Virus record (IMG/VR): IMGVR_UViG_3300043411_002794
Span: 1-64,000 of that record
Strand: one strand, 5' to 3'
Source: a virus
DNA: 64,000 bases
The notes under the pieces are model-generated. The model saw nothing but the letters and a program-made list of their open reading frames with translations. It was not told the DNA's origin and searched no databases. Positions 39,043-61,960 of the stretch are shown here, one piece after another. Numbering within the stretch: position 1 is the stretch's first letter; every line of letters starts with the position of its first letter. The translations under genes were made by a program, and so were the position numbers.

Positions 39043-39453
39043 TCAGTCGACATTTTGTGGCACGGCCGGTGTCGAACACTGTAGGTCGTAGGCCTTGTCG
39101 AGTTCCGAGTGATACAGGTGATGCTCGGCAAAATGTGGCGTAACGATACCCGGAAAGAGCATCACATAATCGCCCTCTTCGTTGAGCAGCCCCCATACCG
39201 GTACGCCCGGCGCACTACTGCGGGGTACTGCCTCCGGGTCGTACCAGTGGAGCCGTCGCAGTTCAAACTCAAACATGGTGTCCAGCAAATGTGCAACCCA
39301 TTCCGTGCAACCCGTGCCGGAGAGCAGCTCGCTGCGGTTGAACATCTGCTTGATCTGATCCGGAGTGGGCTCCGGGTCATAAAGCATGAAGTGTTGTTTA
39401 CCGAGGCCGCGAATGTGATCGCCAAACGTATACAGAGAAACGGGAGCGATCAT
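39043..39453 (-). CDS. hypothetical protein (136 aa)
   Basis: ATGA-coupled to the polymerase stop. Confidence 0.65.
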   Translation of the reverse strand: MIAPVSLYTFGDHIRGLGKQHFMLYDPEPTPDQIKQMFNRSELLSGTGCTEWVAHLLDTMFEFELRRLHWYDPEAVPRSSAPGVPVWGLLNEEGDYVMLFPGIVTPHFAEHHLYHSELDKAYDLQCSTPAVPQNVD

Positions 39454-42400
39454 GCGGCCATTGCCTCTTCATAGGTCTTGGGCGGATTCAACATCCACCG
39501 CGGAAGATTGCGCTCGGCAACTTCCTCTTCACTGATGTGCTCACCCCAGTGGATGAACATTTCTTTGTCGATGCCGAAGTAGTACGGCCCCGCATTCAGC
39601 GGCGTGCCGTCCAGGTCCCGTGGTTGGAACGGAACCGACGTCATGCAGCGGGCCATCGTGTCGTAATAAACACGGGCCGCATGCTCAACGGGCACCAACA
39701 GAATGATCGCATCGTGGATCTGCAGCATCAGATGGTAGTAGAACTCGCGGGGATCGAACTGTTTGCGGTAATCAACGAAGTTGAACAACATCTCGTTGAC
39801 CGCTTCGGCCACGCCGTTTTGAATCCCGAAGTTCTGGAACTGCCGCTGCTGCTCGCCGATCACTTGGCGGTCATTTGTGGACTGCAATCTTCGATAGCTA
39901 AGATACGCTCCGCTCATCCAGTGCTGGTTTACGGCCCGTTCACGACAGCGGGCCAGATAAGCATCAACGCCGGAATAGTCATGCAGGTAGCTATCGATCA
40001 TCGCCTGGCACTGATCAACGGTGACGTTCACGCCTTCTTCGGCACACTGCCGGGCGATGGCTTCCGCCGACCGCCCGTACGGGATACCGAAGTTCACGTT
40101 TTTGGCCGCCACATAAAGGCCCTTGTTGCCGGAGTCGCTAAGACCCTTCTTCGTCGGAGCGCACGACAACTGAAACGTGGAACAGGCCCGGCGGGCATGC
40201 ATACCGAAGTAGTCCGGATCGTCCTCTTCCAGATCATTACGCCGGACGTGTTCGATCATCAGCGTATCCTGGGCCTGCCAGGCCAATACGGCCAACTCGG
40301 CGCCCTTGATATCTGCTTCAATCCCGACGTAGCCCGGCGGCACGGTCAACACGGAGCGGATGGGATGGTGATACAACCGTTCGACGCGGAAGATGTCCTT
40401 GTAGGCGCCGTTCAGAATGCGGTTGTAATCGTCCTCGCGTCGCTTCGAGATGTTCTGCAAATTCGGCCTGCGACTGGCAAACCGACAGGTTTCGAGCGTC
40501 TGCAATAAGTGCGTCCGCACCCGGCCGTCGGTACACATGGAGCCGAGCAGGCCGGCGTCATACTCGAAGTTGCCGTCTTCGTCCCGGTTGAACTCTCCGG
40601 TCGATTCATCCTGCGTCGGTTTCCGCAGCACGGTCTTAACGACCTGCGTAAGAAACTTGAGGTCACGAAGCTGCCGCGCAAGCGGATTACGGTGGCCCAG
40701 GATGCCAAGCACTTCTTTGTCGACGGACGGGGCGAAGTTGCCGTCTTCGCGGCGATTGATCAAATCGACCCACAGCTTCTTCCGCTTGCCGGTACTCGTG
40801 ATCGGCTGCAGTCCCAGCGACACAGGTTCCGGATGACCCGGTTCCGGCGTCGGTCGGATCCGCACGAACTGCCCGGTCTGCTTGTCGCGCTTACGGGCAT
40901 ATTCGTCACCGAACAACATGGCGACGCATTGCGGATGGCTCTGATGATTGAAGTTCGGCCAGTTGAGTTTGGTGCGCAAGTCGGCCAGCAACACTTCGCT
41001 GGCCTGCAAGAACACCGAGGTCAGCTCGTCCGCCCGATCCTTATCGATCTGGAAGCCGCACCGTTCCATCTCCAACACCGCCGCAGAGGCTTTGTGATGG
41101 CGATGATACGCGGCCCAGCAGTTGTTACCGAACCGATCGGCGTCCAACAACCCGCCCGGCTTCGTGTGCTGCACGTGGATCCGCAGCGTCACGTCTACGT
41201 CGTAGCAGCCGTAGTGCGGGTTCGTGTCGCCCCGTCGCAACTTGTCAGGGCACAACACTTCCGCCGGACATTCGCCGTACCCTTCCAGGTCCTCGAACTT
41301 GAGATGGTTCACGCTGCAGAAGCGTTTCTTCCATTCGCTCAAAGCCGTGTCGTAGCGAGGACACGTCGTGAGCTTCATGGCCACTTCTTCCAGCTTGAGC
41401 CGTGCCGTCTCGTTAATCGAGTGATGCTCTAACGACGTATCCCAACCGCCCGCACGCGGGTCCGCAGGATCCGGGAAGTATTCGTCCCGTACGTCGAGCC
41501 CCTCGTTGACGAGCCACGGCATATCCGCCCGAAGGAAGTGCCCGCCAATCTTCACCCGACGCCCCGGCGTGCTCTTGCAAAGCCGCCGCATATGGAACAT
41601 CAGGCGTTCGATCGACGGAGAACAGGCCACGGCGCCGCCAGGATGCCGAAGCACCAAGCAGCGGGCCCACTTCTCCTTGTAGGTGAACTGGATCGTACGC
41701 ACGTAAGATCCGGGCTCGCCCGGCTGCTCTCCGTGCCACTCAGCGTCCAGCGCGATCGTGCTGTTCTGCTCCACCGGCAACGCCAAGATCTCGTCCACAA
41801 CGCGAGACAACTCCCGCTCGGTGTAGATGTTGCCGTGATCGACATCCTTCTCCTCGGCTCCGACCTCGCCTCCGTTGATCATGTGCCAGAACAGCCGCAG
41901 CTGCTCCATGAACGGATCTTCAAGCTCAGGTGTCCGGTGCACGGCAGCAGGATGCAGGGCCGCCATGACGCGGATCTTATGCATCTGCGGCTGCTCACCT
42001 TCCCGAGCTTGCAGCGGAACCTCAATATCGATCACCCGGCCGTGCATGTTCGTGACACCGAACGACGACCCGAGCACCGCCTTAGAGGCTTCGGAGCCGA
42101 GACAGAGCAGGTACTTCGGCCGCACGAGCCGCAGCTCTTCGTGGAGCAGCGGCAGGCAATTCTTGATCCACGTCGTCGGCATGCTGCCGAGATTCGGATC
42201 AAGGGCCCCGTGCTTCACGAGGTTGGTGACGTACCAGCTATTGGCGACGTCGGTCGGAATGCCGAGCTCGTACACCGCTTTGTGCAGCTCATCGCTTGCC
42301 GGGCCGATGAAGTTGCATCTGCGCGACAACTCATCCTGCCCGGGCTGCTTGCCGAGAATCATGACGTCCGACTGCATCGGGCCGCCGCCGAAGTTGTCTG

Positions 42401-42752
42401 TGGAATAGCCCCACAGATGCCCCGGCACAAACTGAGCCGGCAAGAGCCGACCCTTGAGATCCACCTGGATCATAAACGTCGGGTCATACAGAGCCCGGCG
42501 ATAGAGGTAGTGCAAACACGGACCAATGGATCGCAGGCGTTTATTGACGCCCGTGCCCATGAAGACCGTGTCGGTGTCGCCCATCAATTCTGCTTGCCGC
42601 AGGAAGTCGGGTCCCGGCAAGGGCATCCCGACGGCGTCCAGCGGATAGAACGGGAATTCGCGGTCGAGATGTTCGCTCGGTCGTCCCTGCAAAATCCCTG
42701 AAAAAGCTTCCAACGTCTGTTCGTAGCTCGTTGGAACGGCAGTTGTCGTCAT
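39450..42752 (-). CDS. polA: family A DNA polymerase with N-terminal uracil-DNA-glycosylase-like domain (SPO1-type)
   Basis: UDG4-like GKQPG...FIGPAS...TNLVKH...LHPAAV; Exo LDAEW; motif A DIKGAEL, motif B AAKNVNFGIPYG, motif C QIHDAI. Confidence 0.93.
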   Translation of the reverse strand: MTTTAVPTSYEQTLEAFSGILQGRPSEHLDREFPFYPLDAVGMPLPGPDFLRQAELMGDTDTVFMGTGVNKRLRSIGPCLHYLYRRALYDPTFMIQVDLKGRLLPAQFVPGHLWGYSTDNFGGGPMQSDVMILGKQPGQDELSRRCNFIGPASDELHKAVYELGIPTDVANSWYVTNLVKHGALDPNLGSMPTTWIKNCLPLLHEELRLVRPKYLLCLGSEASKAVLGSSFGVTNMHGRVIDIEVPLQAREGEQPQMHKIRVMAALHPAAVHRTPELEDPFMEQLRLFWHMINGGEVGAEEKDVDHGNIYTERELSRVVDEILALPVEQNSTIALDAEWHGEQPGEPGSYVRTIQFTYKEKWARCLVLRHPGGAVACSPSIERLMFHMRRLCKSTPGRRVKIGGHFLRADMPWLVNEGLDVRDEYFPDPADPRAGGWDTSLEHHSINETARLKLEEVAMKLTTCPRYDTALSEWKKRFCSVNHLKFEDLEGYGECPAEVLCPDKLRRGDTNPHYGCYDVDVTLRIHVQHTKPGGLLDADRFGNNCWAAYHRHHKASAAVLEMERCGFQIDKDRADELTSVFLQASEVLLADLRTKLNWPNFNHQSHPQCVAMLFGDEYARKRDKQTGQFVRIRPTPEPGHPEPVSLGLQPITSTGKRKKLWVDLINRREDGNFAPSVDKEVLGILGHRNPLARQLRDLKFLTQVVKTVLRKPTQDESTGEFNRDEDGNFEYDAGLLGSMCTDGRVRTHLLQTLETCRFASRRPNLQNISKRREDDYNRILNGAYKDIFRVERLYHHPIRSVLTVPPGYVGIEADIKGAELAVLAWQAQDTLMIEHVRRNDLEEDDPDYFGMHARRACSTFQLSCAPTKKGLSDSGNKGLYVAAKNVNFGIPYGRSAEAIARQCAEEGVNVTVDQCQAMIDSYLHDYSGVDAYLARCRERAVNQHWMSGAYLSYRRLQSTNDRQVIGEQQRQFQNFGIQNGVAEAVNEMLFNFVDYRKQFDPREFYYHLMLQIHDAIILLVPVEHAARVYYDTMARCMTSVPFQPRDLDGTPLNAGPYYFGIDKEMFIHWGEHISEEEVAERNLPRWMLNPPKTYEEAMAA

Positions 42753-45591: not shown

Positions 45592-46281
45592 TTATCCTTT
45601 CGGGCTAGTCATTTCGCGCTGAATCTGCGTAGCTTCATCGCGAATAGGTTGCGGCAGCGTCGGTAGTAATCGGTCGTACGCAACGCGATTGAACAGGTAT
45701 TCCACGGCGGCCTGACGGAGAAAGTCCGCCGCCAATTCATGCAGACCAAACTCAGTTGCCATGCAGTACCGCAGCAGCGGTCCCGCCTGCACGCGGTGTC
45801 GGTCACAAATAGCCGTGACCTGAATGGCTCGATCCGTTTGGGCCGGATAGAGTCGTTTCAAAGCCCAGATCTCGGTCTGCACGACTTCCCGTTGTCGATG
45901 CCACGACTCGGCAATCTCTGAGCTGCGCTCGGCGGTGATCTGGTAATAGTGCGAAAGAATATCACCGTGTGTCAGCGTATTCGGGGCAGGCGGCGTACGC
46001 CCGCGACGAAGTGCAAACGCCGCCTGGATGTACACGATCGGATCGAGCTGGTGCTGCGTGAAGAAGTCGGCCAGCCGCGGCCAGATCGGCCGGTGGTTAC
46101 GACCAAACGAATCGCGACCGCCATCCCAGTGCGGGATCTCTTCATCGCCGTAGGTCAGCGCCGACGGACACGCACGACGATACTCGGCGCAGTAGATGCT
46201 CCGAATAAACGTCGGCAGTACCGCTTCGGTGATCTCTCCCAAACCTTCGCCGAGAGAGATTCCTCGTCTCGGGTCGGTCAT
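45592..46281 (-). CDS. hypothetical protein, possible helicase loader
   Basis: Between SF2 helicase and DnaB; helical, YIQAAF...PAPNTL; role inferred from position. Confidence 0.55.
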   Translation of the reverse strand: MTDPRRGISLGEGLGEITEAVLPTFIRSIYCAEYRRACPSALTYGDEEIPHWDGGRDSFGRNHRPIWPRLADFFTQHQLDPIVYIQAAFALRRGRTPPAPNTLTHGDILSHYYQITAERSSEIAESWHRQREVVQTEIWALKRLYPAQTDRAIQVTAICDRHRVQAGPLLRYCMATEFGLHELAADFLRQAAVEYLFNRVAYDRLLPTLPQPIRDEATQIQREMTSPKG

Positions 46282-47792
46282 AGGAAAGATCTCGTCATTT
46301 CGGCTTGGCCAATTTGTCGCTTACCCTGGTCCCAGTCCTGATCCCACTCCAGTTCCTTGTAGGTTCCATAGCGGGACTTGGAGCGACGCAAGAAGTCGTC
46401 GTCCCAGTAGTCGATCGTGTCGATCACCTGGCCGTACTCTTTGCCGTCGTGCAAACGAGAGGCACGACCAGGGCCCTGGGTATCCAGGATTTCCGAACTG
46501 CGGGCATCGGCCCGCACGACGGTCTGCAGGGCGGTGAAGTCGACGCCGGTCGCCCAGACGTCAGTGGCGATCACTCGCTTGAGCTGTTGCTGTTCGAACG
46601 CGAGCTGCATGTTGTAGCGCACTTCCGACGTCACATCGACGAAGTGCTGCGGCAACATTCCCGTCGCCTTGTAGTTGTTGAATTCCTCCGGCTTCATTTC
46701 CGCATAGCACAGCGCGAAGTCTTTCAACTCCTGCCACAGGTGCACGGCATGCTCAACGGTCTCGACCAACACGAGCACCTGCTCGTCGGCCGGGATCGTA
46801 CGAACCTCGTCGGCGATGATCCTGTTGCGGAACGCATTTCGCCAGATTCCCCATCGCTTCTGTGCCGTGTCCTTCTTGCCCTTCGCCGGATTCTTGTCCA
46901 TGCGAATCGGCAACCAACGTACGCGGATCGGAACGACCAACCCGAGACGCACGGCCTCGGCGTAGGACATCTCGAAAAGCAACGGGCCGAACAAACCTTC
47001 CAACCGGACTTCGGCTCCATCCATCCGACCGAACGGCGTGGCGGAGAACCCGAAGTTACGGCTAAACCGATAAATCTCGGCCAGCTTGTTGGCATAGTTG
47101 TCGGTCACCAGCTGGTGACATTCATCGCCAAAGAGGAAGTCGGCGTCGCCGTTGCTGCGATGCACGCTATCGGCCGTGATAACCATGACGCGCCCCCACT
47201 GGGCCTTTCCGCCGCCCAGCATCCCGACGCTCGGCAAGTACTTCCGCAGCTGCCGCATGATACGACTGGCCACGGCTACCTGCTTCACAACGATGTGGAT
47301 GTTGGCATACGGATAGCGAAGCGCCATGGCGCAGATCAGCGAGGTCTTACCGAAACCGGTCGGAGCCTTGATGACCCCGCCGCGGTGGCGATCCATCGTC
47401 TCCACGCACTCCTGCTGCCGTGCCCGGTACTGCAGCACCTGCTCGATGTTGTTGGCAAACAGCTGGAAGCGATTCGGTCGATGATGATCGGCCGTCAGAT
47501 CGAGCTCACGGACATGGTGCCCGAGCGAACGAAGCTTCTGTACGATCGACTGTGCGAAGCCGGCCGCACAAGTAAAGCGGCCTTCGTCCAAACGATAGAG
47601 CGTCCGTGTCTGCAGCGAGACGGGGCGGTAGACGCCCTCGGGGTTGGCGTACGCTGCGCGGCCGCGAAGAAAAGTTTTATGGGTGTAGGTCAGCCCTGGC
47701 GCCAGGGCCGAGACTATCTCGGGAGGAAGAGGATTCTTTCCGTCCGGCGAGACGTCGATGAGATTTGCGCTGCGACGAATAAGAATGTGCAT
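46278..47792 (-). CDS. superfamily 2 helicase (UvsW/XPB-like)
   Basis: APTGFGKT, DECH, GFSAT, ATDVWATGVD and QGPGRASR; start MHILIRR. Confidence 0.9.
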   Translation of the reverse strand: MHILIRRSANLIDVSPDGKNPLPPEIVSALAPGLTYTHKTFLRGRAAYANPEGVYRPVSLQTRTLYRLDEGRFTCAAGFAQSIVQKLRSLGHHVRELDLTADHHRPNRFQLFANNIEQVLQYRARQQECVETMDRHRGGVIKAPTGFGKTSLICAMALRYPYANIHIVVKQVAVASRIMRQLRKYLPSVGMLGGGKAQWGRVMVITADSVHRSNGDADFLFGDECHQLVTDNYANKLAEIYRFSRNFGFSATPFGRMDGAEVRLEGLFGPLLFEMSYAEAVRLGLVVPIRVRWLPIRMDKNPAKGKKDTAQKRWGIWRNAFRNRIIADEVRTIPADEQVLVLVETVEHAVHLWQELKDFALCYAEMKPEEFNNYKATGMLPQHFVDVTSEVRYNMQLAFEQQQLKRVIATDVWATGVDFTALQTVVRADARSSEILDTQGPGRASRLHDGKEYGQVIDTIDYWDDDFLRRSKSRYGTYKELEWDQDWDQGKRQIGQAEMTRSFL

Positions 47793-47846
47793 ACGTCCAC
47801 CGTATTTCGTATCCGGAAGACTTGCACACCCCAACAGCTTGCGCTA

Positions 47847-48407
47847 TCATTGTGAAGTCGTTCCATTGGTGCCAGCCGATTGGAAGCCACAGGGGTCTTG
47901 CGATGCCGGTCGCAAGACCCCATTTTTTATGCGCTGTTCTTCCGAGAAGACTCGGCGTCCCAACGCGGTAATTTCAAACGTACCGTACTTCTCCCGTTTG
48001 TCGTGATAGGGCGAGAAGCCTCGCTCTTTCCCGATAAACGTCAACAGTCGATGGAACGCCGGCAGCTCCATCTCCTCGGGCAACTTAGCGTGCACTTGAA
48101 TCGTGCTGCCGGGCTCGAACTGCTCATGAAACACAAAGGCCTGCGGACCAGCGGCCGTCTTTCTGCGATACGACTGCGTGGACGGAACCCCGTGAATCAC
48201 GAGATCCCAAGCAACGCGATCGACCATCCCTTGACAACTGTTCGTCGTCATGGCGGCGTACCGCAATAACGACTCCCACTGCTCAGGAAGAAAGATGATT
48301 TGCCGCTGCGCGTTGCGGAGAAAGCGAAACCAAGCCCCTTTGCCGCGGCGCTCTCGCACAGTCCCTAAACAAGGGAACGTGAATTCGAGCGTAGCGGTGA
48401 CTTCCAT
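47847..48407 (-). CDS. stand-alone Cas7/RAMP-like protein
   Basis: N-terminal strand MEVTATLEFTFPCLG and C-terminal Gly-loop LLTFIGKERGFSP...KYGTFEI fit the RAMP (RRM-fold) pattern. Confidence 0.55.
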   Translation of the reverse strand: MEVTATLEFTFPCLGTVRERRGKGAWFRFLRNAQRQIIFLPEQWESLLRYAAMTTNSCQGMVDRVAWDLVIHGVPSTQSYRRKTAAGPQAFVFHEQFEPGSTIQVHAKLPEEMELPAFHRLLTFIGKERGFSPYHDKREKYGTFEITALGRRVFSEEQRIKNGVLRPASQDPCGFQSAGTNGTTSQ

Positions 48408-48458
48408 TTCTCAACTCCGAGCGCGGTCGGCCATCCTAGCTTCGTGCCATATGGCGTG

Positions 48459-49388
48459 TCAAACAGTAGTCGCGAACTCCGCGAGGTGCGACTTATAAGC
48501 CGTGAGCTCATCATCAGTTTTGAAGATTCTAGTCGGATCAAAAACATCAACCTGCTGTCGATTGAGTCCCTGCAGCCAGGTGTAATTCAGGAACGACAAG
48601 AACATTTGTGAGGCCCGCAGATCACCCCGCGCGCCGCGTCCGGCAGCATGCCAGATGCGCCACAAGAAATGCCCGGGGATTTGCATCTCAGCCGCGGAAG
48701 GCGGTTCCCGGTGCTGCCATGCTGCTAGCACGCAGAAGTTGCGTCGCGACTGCGCATCAATCACCAGCGACGTTGACGACGAAACCTGGGCCTGTTGCTG
48801 CACGTCGAGCCCCATGAACCGCCGCAACTTGTTGGTACGGTAAGGAGTATCCGAAGCAACATACCAACGCGGATCGCGAATCGCCGCCACCACGTGTGCG
48901 ACGAAGTAGGGATGCAGATCCTGCAGAAAACACAGCGAGGACCATGCCGGATGCCGTCGCAAGAGCTCGAGTCCCGTGGCGTCCAAGTCACCCGCATTTT
49001 CACGTAATCGTTTTGCCAGGGCATAGGTCACGTAATCTCCGGCAGTCATCGTATGCCAGCCGCCTAGTGCCGGCGGCAACGAACACTGCCGCATCCGAAA
49101 CAAAGCAATCTGCGGATTCTGCAGCTCGCGACGCGTGCTGCAAAGCAACGGACTAGCCACCTCAAAACGAGCCACCGACTGACCCAACTGCTGGTAGAGG
49201 CCTACCAGCAGGTCCACGTTGCCCTCGGTGCCGAGCAGACGAATACTGCGCGGCCGGGTGAATAACGGCCCAGTCACAAAATTGTGTGACGGCATACGAG
49301 ACGAACACGGCGACCGCGTACCGTCGGAGTACCACACGATGCCGTCCGGCGCCGTGTGAATTTTAAGCGTAAGTTCTTCGGCAATCAC
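48459..49388 (-). CDS. IS110/Nop-domain-like protein, RuvC catalytic residues apparently lost
   Basis: HPAW...AHVVAAIRDPRWY...KLRRFMGL and RASQMFLSFLNYTW match the Transposase_20/Nop pattern; N-terminal LKIH where IS110 has GID. Confidence 0.55.
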   Translation of the reverse strand: MIAEELTLKIHTAPDGIVWYSDGTRSPCSSRMPSHNFVTGPLFTRPRSIRLLGTEGNVDLLVGLYQQLGQSVARFEVASPLLCSTRRELQNPQIALFRMRQCSLPPALGGWHTMTAGDYVTYALAKRLRENAGDLDATGLELLRRHPAWSSLCFLQDLHPYFVAHVVAAIRDPRWYVASDTPYRTNKLRRFMGLDVQQQAQVSSSTSLVIDAQSRRNFCVLAAWQHREPPSAAEMQIPGHFLWRIWHAAGRGARGDLRASQMFLSFLNYTWLQGLNRQQVDVFDPTRIFKTDDELTAYKSHLAEFATTV

Positions 49389-53581: not shown

Positions 53582-53921
53582 ATGGGTTGAAAAACCCCGC
53601 GATATACGCGGCAGTTTCCTTAGGACCAAACAGTTGGTAGCCCTCCGGGACAAATACTGCGTCAGGGCAGTCCGGATTATGGCAGAACGGGCACTGATGT
53701 CGCCCGCGTCGTACGCGGAGCCGCACGTCGTACGCCGTCTTGGTCAGCTTGGCGTCGAACTCCGCGAACAGCGGCTGCATGCCGTTGACGATGCGGACCC
53801 CGGTCGGCCAGGAGAACGTGTTCAGCTTGTCGGCACGGATCCGCCCGACCTGCCGCAGCAGCACGTGCATCCGTGCCTCGGCCTTCTTGTAGAGTTCGTC
53901 AAACAGTGCTTCCGCGTCCAC
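53580..53921 (-). CDS. hypothetical protein (113 aa) with CPFC-x3-C
   Basis: GTG 53921 with GAGGT upstream; overlaps the hldE end. Confidence 0.55.
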   Translation of the reverse strand: MDAEALFDELYKKAEARMHVLLRQVGRIRADKLNTFSWPTGVRIVNGMQPLFAEFDAKLTKTAYDVRLRVRRGRHQCPFCHNPDCPDAVFVPEGYQLFGPKETAAYIAGFFNP

Positions 53922-55347
53922 TGAGAACCTCAGCAATCTGCGTGGTACTAAAGTTGGGTAGCATCGGGATGAAGACGACTTCACCGCCGCGGGCCGCCAC
54001 GAAGTCGGCACCGACCACATTCTGGTCGATATACTCGTCGCCCTTGAACAAAAACTGCGGATGAATCGCTTTGATGATATCCAGCGGTGTGTCGTCGTCG
54101 AACTCGACGAGGGCATCCACCAGCGGCAACAACAAAGGGCGACGCAAAGAAGCGTCACCAACCGGACGACCGGGACCCTTCAACCGACTGATCGACGCAT
54201 CGGAATTGGCGGCGACGATCAGTACGTCGCAACGACTGCGGGCCTGTTGCAGTAAATACACGTGCCCTGGATGCATGAGATCGAAGCAGCCGTTGGTAAA
54301 GCCGATTCGCTTGCCCTTACGATGCTGCCGGGCCGCATACTTGGCGACCTCTGCGTCATTCATCAGCTTCCCGGCGTCGCCTTTGAGGCCCAGCACGAGA
54401 TCTTCTAACTCGTCGCCGCCGATAGTGACGGTGCCGTAACGAGAAACCGCCATAGCTCCTGCCAGCGTTGCCCGGCGGGCGGCTTCGCAAACACCATGAC
54501 CAGCCACGACTCCGGCGACAAGCGTCGCCAGAAACGTGTCACCGGCCCCGGTCACGTCCGCCACCTGGTGGTGCGACGCATCGGTGGACGAGTCCCGGTC
54601 GCCGGCCAGCAGCACGGATCCGGCGGCGCCCAGCGTCACGCACACGGCCGAGATCTGCGGATGTGTCCGCAGAATCTCCCGACCGTAAACGATCCCGTGC
54701 TGCACAGGATCATCCGTCTCCAGCGCCGGGTGCAACACCGGCCCGGCCATTGCTGCCGCTTCCCGCAGGTTCGGCTTCAACATGAACACCGAACCGTACT
54801 CCTTCAGGTACTCCGGCTTAGTGTCGACGTAGAGCGGTAACTTGTACGACTCGCACAAATTGCTGATGACATTGCGCAGGCCGTCCAGCGTACCCTTCCC
54901 GTAATCCGAGACAACGACGGCGGACGGCTGCTCGTGCAACAGGTGATGCAACGAACGAACGTACTCCGCCTGCACTTCCGGCGGATCGTAGAGCTTCGGA
55001 TACGTGGTATCGACGCGAAGCAACTGCTGCCCGGACGCGTAACGGTGCTTAACCTCCGGAGGAACCTTGCTGGCGTACCCTGCCCGCATATCGACACCAT
55101 GAATGGCCAACATGCGGCAGATCCGCTCGGAGTCAGGACAGTCATGACAATCAACACGCCGCCCGAAATACCGCGTACGGATCCCGAGCGAGCTCAGGTT
55201 CATCGCCACGTTCCCGGCGCCGCCCGGAGCTTCAATCGTCTGCGTGGCGACGAGCACCGGTACGGGCGCTTCCGGAGAGCAGCGAGACACGGTGCCGGTC
55301 GTCCACCGATCCAGAAACACGTCGCCGAGAACGAGGACCCAACTCAT
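53899..55347 (-). CDS. hldE: bifunctional heptose-7-phosphate kinase / heptose-1-phosphate nucleotidyltransferase
   Basis: LGDVFLD...SPEAPVPV, PGGAGNVA, DVTGAGDTF (PfkB kinase); FTNGCFDLMHPGH, NSDASISRLKGPGRP and FSTT (cytidylyltransferase-like). Confidence 0.93.
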   Translation of the reverse strand: MSWVLVLGDVFLDRWTTGTVSRCSPEAPVPVLVATQTIEAPGGAGNVAMNLSSLGIRTRYFGRRVDCHDCPDSERICRMLAIHGVDMRAGYASKVPPEVKHRYASGQQLLRVDTTYPKLYDPPEVQAEYVRSLHHLLHEQPSAVVVSDYGKGTLDGLRNVISNLCESYKLPLYVDTKPEYLKEYGSVFMLKPNLREAAAMAGPVLHPALETDDPVQHGIVYGREILRTHPQISAVCVTLGAAGSVLLAGDRDSSTDASHHQVADVTGAGDTFLATLVAGVVAGHGVCEAARRATLAGAMAVSRYGTVTIGGDELEDLVLGLKGDAGKLMNDAEVAKYAARQHRKGKRIGFTNGCFDLMHPGHVYLLQQARSRCDVLIVAANSDASISRLKGPGRPVGDASLRRPLLLPLVDALVEFDDDTPLDIIKAIHPQFLFKGDEYIDQNVVGADFVAARGGEVVFIPMLPNFSTTQIAEVLSGRGSTV

Positions 55348-59278: not shown

Positions 59279-60433
59279 TTAGACGGCTTCGTGCACGCGT
59301 ATCGCAACCGGGAAGCGAGGGACAGGCGGAGTGGTCGTCGTCCATTCCTGGAACTTGACCGTCAACTTCCGCCCGAGCAACTGATCGCGTTGGTCGTAAA
59401 GCTCCCGCTTCTGTGCGTGCGTGCCGGGCGCCAAAACATCGAACGTCGCGTTGGTGGTCGGGACGACACAGGTGAAGATAGCCATCCCGGCGTGCGTACC
59501 GCGACCTTCGGTAACTGAGACGATCCCGAACTCCGCGTCCATGAACGTCTTAACCTTGAGAAGATCCCGTGAACGCTTACCGGCCTGATAGGCCTGCAGG
59601 CCGTGTCGCAGCATCGCACCTTCGTAGCCGTCGGCAACGCACGCGGCCTGAAACGACATCACTTCGTCCGGCGTCGCCACCTTAATGGTTTTGACCGGCA
59701 CGATGATGTCGCGAGGCAGCCGCCGCAGCCGCTCACAGGCCGACGAGTAGCGCGATCCGAACGGACCGGGCAACATCGCGTCGTACACGTGGTACTGGAT
59801 CCTGGTCGGATCCACGGCACCGGCCTTCTTCGAGTTACGGATGGCACTGGCGATCTGCTGGAACGTAATGTCGCCGTGCACGAACAGCTCGCCATCGAGC
59901 GTCTCGCCCGGCTGGATCGCGTTTCGCAGGACCTCTTGAATGTGCCCCATCGTCTCAATCAACGTACCCTTCCGCGAATAGAGCCGAATTTCTCCGTCTT
60001 CATTGCGGGCCAAGCAGCGGTGTCCATCGAGCTTGGGTTGCACGAAGGCCTGCTGCCAGTCGACGATGTTGACGTAGTCACCAAAGCTCTCTGCGAGCAT
60101 CGGCGCCAGTGCCCGGCTGGCAGCGGAATCGGCGACGTTGGTCGCGTAGTGGTGCCGCTGCGTCTGGGCCTTATACCGTGCCTCGGCCTCTTTCACGGCC
60201 TGCTGCAAGGGAGTGGTGGCATTCTTCTTGCCGGGGTTCTTGCCGACGGCGATATTGTCGCGGATGACCTGCTTCACACCGCCCTGCCGTCCGTGATGGA
60301 TGACAATGTCGGCCGTGCCGTTTTCCCGGGCTTCGACACGAATGTCCCATTCTTGGACCCCTTCATCCGCGGTCTGTTTCAACAGCGTATCGCCGCGGTA
60401 GGCGACTTCGCCTAATACCTGGTCGGAATTCAT
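59279..60433 (-). CDS. ATP-dependent DNA ligase
   Basis: QPKLDG (KxDG), LDGELF, EGAMLR, LLKVK and PRFP; WGR-like N-terminal domain. Confidence 0.93.
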   Translation of the reverse strand: MNSDQVLGEVAYRGDTLLKQTADEGVQEWDIRVEARENGTADIVIHHGRQGGVKQVIRDNIAVGKNPGKKNATTPLQQAVKEAEARYKAQTQRHHYATNVADSAASRALAPMLAESFGDYVNIVDWQQAFVQPKLDGHRCLARNEDGEIRLYSRKGTLIETMGHIQEVLRNAIQPGETLDGELFVHGDITFQQIASAIRNSKKAGAVDPTRIQYHVYDAMLPGPFGSRYSSACERLRRLPRDIIVPVKTIKVATPDEVMSFQAACVADGYEGAMLRHGLQAYQAGKRSRDLLKVKTFMDAEFGIVSVTEGRGTHAGMAIFTCVVPTTNATFDVLAPGTHAQKRELYDQRDQLLGRKLTVKFQEWTTTTPPVPRFPVAIRVHEAV

Positions 60434-60768
60434 TCCGTCTCCTGGATTGAGTGAAGTTGAAGACTCCCCTGCAAAATCTGCAGGGCAGCATCGTAAAAAT
60501 TGATTGTGCGTTTGCTCGGGCGCGTCGCGACGCAGCCGACCGTTACGGGCGTCGGATCCAGGCCGCGGGCTTCCATCGCACTGCGGAACTGCGGGTGGCT
60601 ATGGATGCTTCGATAGTCGCGAAGCACGCGGCGCGACACGGGTAATCCCTGCCCTGCCGCGGCGGCGACCGCGTTGGCATGACGCATCGCCTGGAACTTT
60701 CGTTCCCCGTGCGGGAATCGCTGCAACCACTCCGCCCGCGTGTACTCATGCTCGGATTTGTTCGGCAT
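60430..60768 (-). CDS. hypothetical protein (112 aa)
   Basis: Coupled to ligase. Confidence 0.55.
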   Translation of the reverse strand: MPNKSEHEYTRAEWLQRFPHGERKFQAMRHANAVAAAAGQGLPVSRRVLRDYRSIHSHPQFRSAMEARGLDPTPVTVGCVATRPSKRTINFYDAALQILQGSLQLHSIQETE

Positions 60769-61048
60769 CTTTTAAGTAATAGTTGACAGGATAGATGAAG
60801 TTGCTCGGCTGCGTCCCAATCGGCCTGCCGAGCTTGTTTTCCAGGGCGCCGGTGTCTTCCAGCGTCTTGAGCGTCCACTTCGGACCGACGGGCATATGCG
60901 ACGTACGCAGTTCGCCTGCGGGCCGCAGCTCCAGATTTTGATAGCAGACGCCGCCGGTCGTTTCCGGATCGTCGAGCTGCGACTGAATCTGCAAATGTAC
61001 GGACGGATCGAACTGCGCGAAGTACTCCTCGCGAGAAAGTTGCTTCAA
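60746..61048 (-). CDS. hypothetical protein (100 aa)
   Basis: Co-oriented, tightly packed. Confidence 0.6.
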   Translation of the reverse strand: MKQLSREEYFAQFDPSVHLQIQSQLDDPETTGGVCYQNLELRPAGELRTSHMPVGPKWTLKTLEDTGALENKLGRPIGTQPSNFIYPVNYYLKDAEQIRA

Positions 61049-61064
61049 AGGACGCTAGCTCCGG

Positions 61065-61334
61065 TTATTCTTCGTCTTCGTTGAGCGGGTGCCCGTCGAC
61101 ACCGACGACAAAGCGAGCACCACCCTCGCCGTCATGCTCGATACCGAGCGTCATGAACTCCAACTGCGGCCAGTGGTCGGGAGCGTAGTCGTGCCAGGTC
61201 GGGCCCAGCGTCATCGTGTCGGGCAGCCCGGCGATGGCTTGGCGGAGATGCCCCAGTGTCAGCAACTTCTGGCCGAGCCTGGGTTTGATAATCTGATGCC
61301 CGGCTTTAGGCGCAGCCGATTGCTTCTTGGCCAT
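61065..61334 (-). CDS. hypothetical protein (89 aa)
   Basis: MAKKQSAAPK start with AAAGG upstream. Confidence 0.6.
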   Translation of the reverse strand: MAKKQSAAPKAGHQIIKPRLGQKLLTLGHLRQAIAGLPDTMTLGPTWHDYAPDHWPQLEFMTLGIEHDGEGGARFVVGVDGHPLNEDEE

Positions 61335-61668
61335 GTAAAAGGCCTTTCTTTAATTTTGGATCAACGCATTCCGCGTGAAACAGTACCTGCCACGGTAATA
61401 ATTCCGCCAAGCGGTAGGCGACAGCGCACGCATGCCCGATCGCCGAGAGGCTCACCCGCAGCTCATCGCGATCGCTGCCGTAACGCCCATAGTGATGATC
61501 GAAGTCAGCGACGATCGTCGTGAACTGCGGGCCGTGAATGCAGACCCGGTAACTGGTCCAACCGGGCCGCGGACAGTGGTGTACCGTGATCGAATATTCA
61601 TTGCGATCACGCGTACCGACGTTCCGTGGAAAATCACGGACGACGTAATACGCGCTAACCTGGGTCAT
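61306..61668 (-). CDS. hypothetical protein (120 aa)
   Basis: Likely start MTQVSAY. Confidence 0.55.
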   Translation of the reverse strand: MTQVSAYYVVRDFPRNVGTRDRNEYSITVHHCPRPGWTSYRVCIHGPQFTTIVADFDHHYGRYGSDRDELRVSLSAIGHACAVAYRLAELLPWQVLFHAECVDPKLKKGLLHGQEAIGCA

Positions 61669-61960
61669 CGCGAATAGTTTCCAGTAGCCGCAAGGCGCCA
61701 ACCGTCGCCTCGTACTGCGCGTCGGTCAAATGCCGCATTAACCCACTGATCGTCACGCACTGTCGTGCCAAATCGTCTTTGCTGACATTCAAAAAGTAAT
61801 TGCGACCCGGTCGCTCCGGTGCCCGCTCCCACGTGCCGCCGCGCGGTAAGTGGTTGAAAAAGTCGTGTTCGTTATCAGTGAACCGAGTACAGAACGCCAG
61901 ATCCGTCCAACCGTGTTCGTTGGACCAGTAGAGCCCATTCTCGTCGACAATGACCCACAT
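61655..61960 (-). CDS. hypothetical protein (101 aa)
   Basis: MWVIVDENGLYW start in TAATG overlap with the methyltransferase stop. Confidence 0.6.
   Translation of the reverse strand: MWVIVDENGLYWSNEHGWTDLAFCTRFTDNEHDFFNHLPRGGTWERAPERPGRNYFLNVSKDDLARQCVTISGLMRHLTDAQYEATVGALRLLETIRDDPG

Follow-up and report, generated by a model that had tools for sequence, protein, structure and literature searches.

A predicted minimal RAMP protein kept in the replication operon of ~200-kb phages

What does a RAMP protein do in a phage genome that carries no CRISPR-Cas locus? Work of 2026 portrays viral RAMPs as array-guided silencers and proposes them as ancestors of CRISPR backbones: in VIPR systems, the phage RAMP Vipr polymerises on vrRNAs of 9-16 YNNGG repeats and silences matching DNA via a gapped code (bioRxiv 10.64898/2026.04.26.720920, 10.64898/2026.04.26.720927). 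A preliminary description of the DNA considered here (64,000 nucleotides in all, termed the window) had singled out a solo, minimal Cas7/RAMP-like protein that could polymerise on a non-CRISPR RNA, a concept which now has a published counterpart in VIPR systems. Here we ask whether this protein, which we term mini-RAMP, is a RAMP, whether a guide array accompanies it, and what purpose it could serve. The gene and its immediate features are the following, in window coordinates:

47847..48407, (-) strand: mini-RAMP gene, 186 aa (ORF, SD sequence, family, motifs, model and fold matches)
about 47943-48407, (-) strand: Cas7/Vipr-like conserved core of mini-RAMP, residues 1-~155
48433..48462, (-) strand: promoter-like site upstream of mini-RAMP, in the 51-nt gap (TTGACA-18-TAGGAT, 10/12, sigma-70 consensus scan)

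The ORF starts with an ATG and has GGAG 8 bases upstream. The preliminary description had noted motifs at both ends of a 186-aa ORF, and all three motifs are present and conserved: F9-x-x-P12-x-L14-G15, a thumb-region motif (SYRRKTAAGPQAFVFHEQF, residues 79-97), and G126-x-x-R-G130-F-S132-P133 ... Y141-G142-x-F144. Searching 1.84 billion representatives exhaustively with phmmer yielded 126 homologous clusters at E <= 0.001, nearly all of 150-190 residues, with the match covering residues 2-150. When 100 homologues were aligned, H94, G130 and G142 were invariant, and F9, L14, G15, F39, R82, E95, G100, P110, G126, S132, P133 and F144 were conserved in at least 90% of sequences. Conservation across this alignment indicates that the motifs are selected and did not arise by chance. 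The family pattern reads EVTxRLRFTxPCLG, FLPxWW..AA, WDP and W/YxR; a basic stretch of variable length follows, and then HEAFxxG, LPxxI, G.Y.GISP[FY] and YGxFEV. The family core is basic, with a median pI of 9.4. The tail (the last ~30-36 residues, ~150-186) is unconserved and modelled with low confidence (pLDDT near 60), varies in length and content across the family, and is encoded by DNA that overlaps a terminator-like hairpin of the opposite strand. In the ESM Atlas, the clusters closest to mini-RAMP are 97-100% viral. The protein has no match in Pfam, PHROGs, NCBIfam or PADLOC, and no curated RAMP model (Pfam PF03787 and relatives) was found among the matches of 100 family members. Similarly, neither tblastn against deposited phages nor a scan of viral contigs with the mini-RAMP protein alone returned a match.

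An AlphaFold2 model computed with the family alignment as input has a mean pLDDT of 91.5 and a pTM of 0.79, with residues 1-155 mostly above 90. Its elements (E2-9, H41-55, E80-94, E102-108, H115-128, E144-151) make up an RRM/ferredoxin-like core. The thumb is a predicted β-hairpin (E80-83/E91-94), located where the preliminary description had put it, with a tip that is basic and length-variable in the family. The G-loop, also at its proposed place, lies between helix 115-128 and strand 144-151, where G126, G130 and G142 are conserved or invariant. Foldseek against the PDB returned 113 chains at E <= 0.001 (best E 3.7e-6), and among the matches listed all are CRISPR RAMPs or effector complexes, namely type VII Cas7, Csm3, Cas7-11/gRAMP, Csf2 and Cmr1. 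VIA-align was run against 48,161 representative chains: ranks 1-25 are all RAMPs, led by Cmr-beta 6s6b_I (Z 11.9 over 146 residues, rmsd 3.0 Å), and the first non-RAMP appears at Z 7.1. A viral structure library gave few matches, which were likewise RAMP-like proteins. The RAMP identity originally proposed is thus borne out, as the structure searches returned RAMPs on top and not a non-RAMP fold. As modelled, mini-RAMP is a genuine minimal RAMP, built like Cas7 and Vipr from one RRM-like core, a basic β-hairpin thumb and a glycine-rich loop.

How close is it to Vipr? Searched against PDB sequences, the family profile produced one weak match, to SUSP1 Vipr (36pp; hmmsearch E 0.09), over the G-loop. 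When the family was compared with SUSP1 Vipr by hhalign, the probability was 80%; with a small Vipr profile it reached 92.8% (E 4e-7). Each alignment is limited to helix 2, the G-loop and strand 4 (37-39 columns), with the remaining protein unaligned. From these alignments, the mini-RAMP family appears to be a virus-associated, distantly related sister of Vipr, with homology seen over the G-loop segment only. In SUSP1 Vipr, GGY is read by H17, R138, D177, W178 and R179, of which D177 reads the first guanine (bioRxiv 10.64898/2026.04.26.720920, 10.64898/2026.04.26.720927). By HMM and hhalign alignment, the mini-RAMP family does not keep these residues: the invariant P133 stands in place of D177, the counterpart of W178 is aromatic (Y/F134), that of R179 varies, and no conserved His is seen in strand 1 of the family alignment. 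Since the G-loop reads G-I-S-P-[FY] in mini-RAMP and G-V-G-D-W in Vipr, the Asp that reads G1 in Vipr is replaced by an invariant Pro. Support for the term "ancestral-type" used in the preliminary description comes from the distant kinship of mini-RAMP with the Vipr RAMPs proposed to be ancestral (hhalign 92.8%), seen over the G-loop only.

Is there an array for mini-RAMP to read? We scanned the 64-kb window and then the whole virus record of 192,194 bp (93% complete). Runs of YNNGG, NNNGG or YNNNG (x4 units) did not exceed shuffled controls in either, nor did a 5-nt GG periodicity; the same script, applied to the SUSP1 locus as positive control, recovered 12 perfect units and the maximum score. 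TRF detected no CRISPR-like or TIGR-like array in the 192-kb genome, and no Rfam family was found in the window. An ORF-poor stretch at 60433-61960 was considered as a non-coding RNA region and rejected, being filled with small minus-strand ORFs. Overall, the window and genome scans found no repeat RNA associated with the mini-RAMP gene. The 192-kb genome is also devoid of cas genes, and the neighbours of mini-RAMP are replication and repair genes. The gene does therefore lie outside any CRISPR-Cas locus, as had been claimed, with no cas gene, CRISPR array or TIGR-like array in the 192-kb genome.

True guide systems do occur elsewhere in the lineage. One related locus, L033 (IMGVR_UViG_3300022752_005685), contains a complete canonical VIPR system at about 241-1891, inserted upstream of Mre11 and 7 kb upstream of its mini-RAMP. 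A Vipr 90% identical to that of L033 (P0132) is found on a contig of 200,670 bp. The genome from which the window derives has a six-base array and a second RAMP (together L055:2326-4237). The features of L033 and of the window's own genome are, respectively:

L033, 241-311: tRNA-Gln
L033, 315-810: YNNGG arrays, about 490 bp
L033, 828-1190: HNH gene
L033, 1187-1891: Vipr, 234 aa, 33% identical to SUSP1 Vipr (PDB E 1.5e-25)
own genome, 75,325-76,560 (11 kb beyond the window): YGRCNN six-base periodic tract of ~1.2 kb (periodicity scan)
own genome, 76,565-77,236: second RAMP gene, 223 aa, adjoining the six-base array, with a Vipr-like C-terminal G-loop VGVGACRKMGYGRGRV

BLAST of the 223-aa protein against Vipr showed no similarity, and hhalign against the mini-RAMP family gave a weak match (23% probability). 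We also inspected 15 mini-RAMP-carrying relatives that are 93-100% complete: none contains a homologue of the second RAMP, a six-base array or a Vipr (a positive control was run), and a pentamer-array scan of these 15 gave one match, which is the chance level. The VIPR system of L033, the six-base array of our genome and the 15 array-less relatives together indicate that guide systems come and go with their own RAMPs, and that mini-RAMP stays in the replication operon. Mini-RAMP is thus independent of the guide systems present in the lineage.

What, then, does mini-RAMP stay with? In the window, a co-oriented, tightly packed block comprises HldE-like, Mre11, a 317-aa ORF, Rad50/SbcC, a 309-aa ORF and mini-RAMP, followed by an SF2 helicase, a 229-aa ORF, DnaB, primase and a family-A polymerase with an N-terminal UDG domain. 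Members of the block referred to below are:

39450-42752, (-) strand: family-A DNA polymerase, 1100 aa (Pfam UDG residues 122-279, DNA_pol_A 736-1037)
46278..47834, (-) strand: SF2 helicase (ResIII + Helicase_C), downstream of mini-RAMP (Pfam and PHROG)
48459..49388, (-) strand: TasR/IS110-like neighbour, 309 aa, upstream of mini-RAMP (model pLDDT 93.6)
53899-55347, (-) strand: HldE-like bifunctional heptose kinase/adenylyltransferase, full length (NCBIfam E 1e-94)

The N-terminal domain of the 1100-aa polymerase belongs to the uracil-DNA-glycosylase superfamily. The HldE-like gene stands at the head of the Mre11-Rad50 block and was detected in 10 of 52 related loci within 8 kb upstream of the RAMP gene. 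These 52 loci were obtained by a pattern scan of IMG/VR, many on contigs of 190-225 kb, and essentially all share the order Mre11, Rad50, 309-aa ORF, RAMP, helicase, 229-aa ORF, DnaB, primase and PolA. Median identity to the window protein is 37% for the RAMP, 35% for Mre11, 36% for the 309-aa ORF and 37% for the primase; judged by these values, mini-RAMP and the replication genes around it appear to diverge about equally fast. A search anchored on the 309-aa neighbour identified 57 loci, with the RAMP present in 48 and missing in 9 (9/57) that keep the TasR-like protein and the helicase; in one of these, L106, the 309-aa neighbour directly precedes the helicase. Being syntenic in 52 loci and missing from 9/57, mini-RAMP is widespread and positionally fixed, yet dispensable. 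It thus belongs to the replication/recombination operon of a lineage of ~200-kb phages, widely retained there though dispensable. The description "solo" calls for qualification, as mini-RAMP is tightly packed, at the level of translation, between its TasR-like and helicase neighbours and a second, unrelated RAMP lies 27 kb away in the same genome.

Two apparent spacers in related loci were examined as RNA candidates and discarded. In L004 and L005, the extra sequence that separates the RAMP from the TasR-like gene consists of inserted small genes, and what looks in five loci like a space between RAMP and helicase belongs to an enlarged helicase ORF and is not non-coding DNA. The XPB-like helicase ORFs of L004, L011, L018, L022 and L026 encode 887-919 aa, about 350-400 residues longer than elsewhere, a lengthening which suggests an intein or inserted domain.

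The two flanking proteins deserve closer description. The model of the 309-aa neighbour shows a RuvC-like N-terminal domain and a Nop-like C-terminal domain. In VIA it matches TIGR-TasR 9mty_B over its full length (Z 10.7, 230 residues), TasH (Z 8.9) and the IS110 protein ISCro4 (Z 6.7), and in Foldseek IS621 (E 0.013); Pfam has no match for it. TasR, TasH and IS110 proteins are RNA-guided DNA-binding proteins. On the other side, the closest solved relatives of the helicase are archaeal XPBII proteins (PDB E 2e-11). The helicase ORF as listed starts with TTG at 47834, and an ATG at 47792 has GGTGGA upstream. The latter is probably the true start, as the proteins of relatives start at the residue corresponding to M15; a start at 47792 leaves a 54-nt gap after the mini-RAMP stop.

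One candidate RNA abuts the gene on the opposite strand:

47892..47921: perfect 12-bp GC-rich hairpin in the tail-coding part of mini-RAMP, loop CCGGCA on the gene strand
47857..47931, (+) strand: candidate antisense small RNA, ~75 nt (promoter-like site 47823-47850 (+), terminator 47892-47931 (+))

On the gene strand, the hairpin at 47892-47921 is preceded by an A-tract; on the + strand, where ATTTTTTAT comes next, it resembles an intrinsic terminator. The hairpin with loop CCGGCA is unique in the 192-kb genome. An A-tract and hairpin occur at the same position in nine relatives (L053, L054, L094/L096, L095, L098, L101, L105, L110), with fully covarying stems and similar loops (CCGGCA twice, CTGGCA, CTGGTAA), and in three of them (L094, L098, L101) the opposite strand bears both a TTGACA-17-TAnnAT promoter-like site and a terminator. 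The ~40 loci of the main group, in which the RAMP stop directly adjoins the helicase start, lack the element here. The element is kept in L104 and L090, which lack the RAMP, and so it is not tied to mini-RAMP. The 5' part of the candidate small RNA has no trans targets above shuffled controls. We regard this RNA as a lead, not as an established partner of mini-RAMP.

Together, these observations are best accommodated by a reading that we favour tentatively and hold to have somewhat less than an even chance of being right, i.e. that mini-RAMP is an array-less single-stranded nucleic-acid clamp or subunit serving replication or recombination. It fits best because the core is basic, the G-loop and thumb are kept, the Csm3-type Asp is missing, the place in the operon is fixed, and the gene is independent of arrays. 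The palm, G-loop and thumb would clamp single-stranded nucleic acid, either RNA or possibly ssDNA, in a manner resembling how Cas7 and Vipr hold guides, and would do so without a dedicated repeat code; the protein would act together with its TasR-like and helicase neighbours in replication, repair or recombination. Programmable silencing is probably not its function. Synteny alone is, however, no proof of a replication role, and the absence of the RAMP from 9/57 loci means that it is not essential to the TasR-like/helicase core. The conserved antisense small-RNA-like element which abuts the gene here and in some relatives also sits uneasily with an array-less clamp, and G-loop homology to Vipr leaves room for a guide-type function with an unrecognised RNA. 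A bolder and unlikely, yet arguable, proposal is that the putatively nuclease-dead TasR-like protein, mini-RAMP and the XPB-like helicase form an array-less RNP machine in which ordinary RNA serves to mark or open the DNA that is to be replicated or recombined; candidates for this RNA are primers, transcripts of an origin or R-loop, and the antisense small RNA next to the gene.

This last RNA could instead be bound by mini-RAMP in a regulatory RNP controlling the helicase or its own mRNA. The promoter-like site and canonical terminator on the + strand, the presence of the element, its stem covarying and its loop much alike, in nine relatives, and the conserved promoter-like sites of L094, L098 and L101 speak for this arrangement, which we nevertheless judge rather improbable: the element is lacking at this position in ~40 main-group loci and persists in the RAMP-less L104 and L090, a covarying stem is expected of any terminator, and no trans target rises above chance. 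It is quite improbable, too, that mini-RAMP is a Vipr-type guide effector loading RNAs from elsewhere, be it from the six-base array of its own genome or from vrRNAs of other phages or satellites. Class 1 CRISPR effectors do combine several RAMPs on one RNA, mini-RAMP shares G-loop homology with Vipr, its genome carries the 1.2-kb YGRCNN array, and there is a description of solo vrRNAs by which the Vipr of another element is redirected (bioRxiv 10.64898/2026.10.15.759431). But that array has its own adjacent RAMP gene, weakly related to the mini-RAMP family; 15 near-complete relatives keep mini-RAMP without such an array or second RAMP; and the GGY-reading positions are lost (D177 -> P133, and no strand-1 His). 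Finally, mini-RAMP had been suggested to be a decoy for host crRNA, and one can extend this to an anti-defence protein that soaks up host crRNA or the vrRNA of rivals. A RAMP fold without the catalytic Asp of Csm3-type RNases would suit such a role, and VIPR-type conflicts do involve phages of this lineage. Counter-defence genes, however, usually reside in variable regions and turn over fast, whereas mini-RAMP holds one position in the replication operon across 52 loci and diverges at about the rate of the neighbouring replication genes; PADLOC, whose models cover defence and not anti-defence, gave no match. The decoy idea thus fits poorly, and we consider it very improbable.

The mini-RAMP family represents a second way in which phages keep RAMPs, array-less and beside a TasR-like protein and a helicase in a replication operon, in genomes shared with true guide systems, each of which comes with a RAMP of its own. 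If mini-RAMP binds RNA or ssDNA in replication or repair, the fold that holds guides also has a housekeeping use in viruses, and mini-RAMP would, if this is true, bear on which came first, a guide system or a nucleic-acid clamp. If the RNP machine proved real, it would signify an exaptation of guide-RNA systems (VIPR, TIGR-Tas) by core DNA metabolism, or a link between the two. As the protein is small and well-folded and has many diverse homologues, it is easily testable.

How does mini-RAMP compare with known systems? Its best structural matches are the Cas7-family backbones (Csm3, Cmr4, type VII Cas7, Csf2), with Z 9-11.9 over 130-152 aligned residues, yet sequence identity to them is only 5-17%, and mini-RAMP is smaller and has no extra domains. 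Unlike Cas7-family CRISPR effectors, it is not joined by a Cas5, Cas6 or Cas10 partner or by a CRISPR array, and unlike Csm3-type RNases it lacks the conserved catalytic Asp, the loop after strand 1 being PCLG. Among these proteins, type IV Csf2 also operates beside a helicase (DinG). The 309-aa neighbour differs from TIGR-Tas and IS110 systems in that it has neither a TIGR array nor a non-coding region of bridge-RNA size (the gaps are 18 and 51 nt), and the usual RuvC strand-1 Asp is not evident in its family consensus. With Vipr of Escherichia phage SUSP1 (PDB 36pp), mini-RAMP has in common that it is phage-encoded, of ~20 kDa, and built of a single RRM core, a thumb and a G-loop in the absence of cas genes; compared by eye, the strand that follows the thumb contains an R...H-[DE] motif in both. 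In contrast, the N-terminal helical extension of Vipr is missing from the mini-RAMP family, the genome has no YNNGG or related pentamer array, and the gene, with flanking gaps of 51 nt (upstream) and 12-54 nt (downstream), is neither bordered by long intergenic regions nor part of a two-gene vipr-vap operon. Vipr belongs to an accessory locus whereas mini-RAMP is fixed in a replication operon, and in L033 the two coexist.
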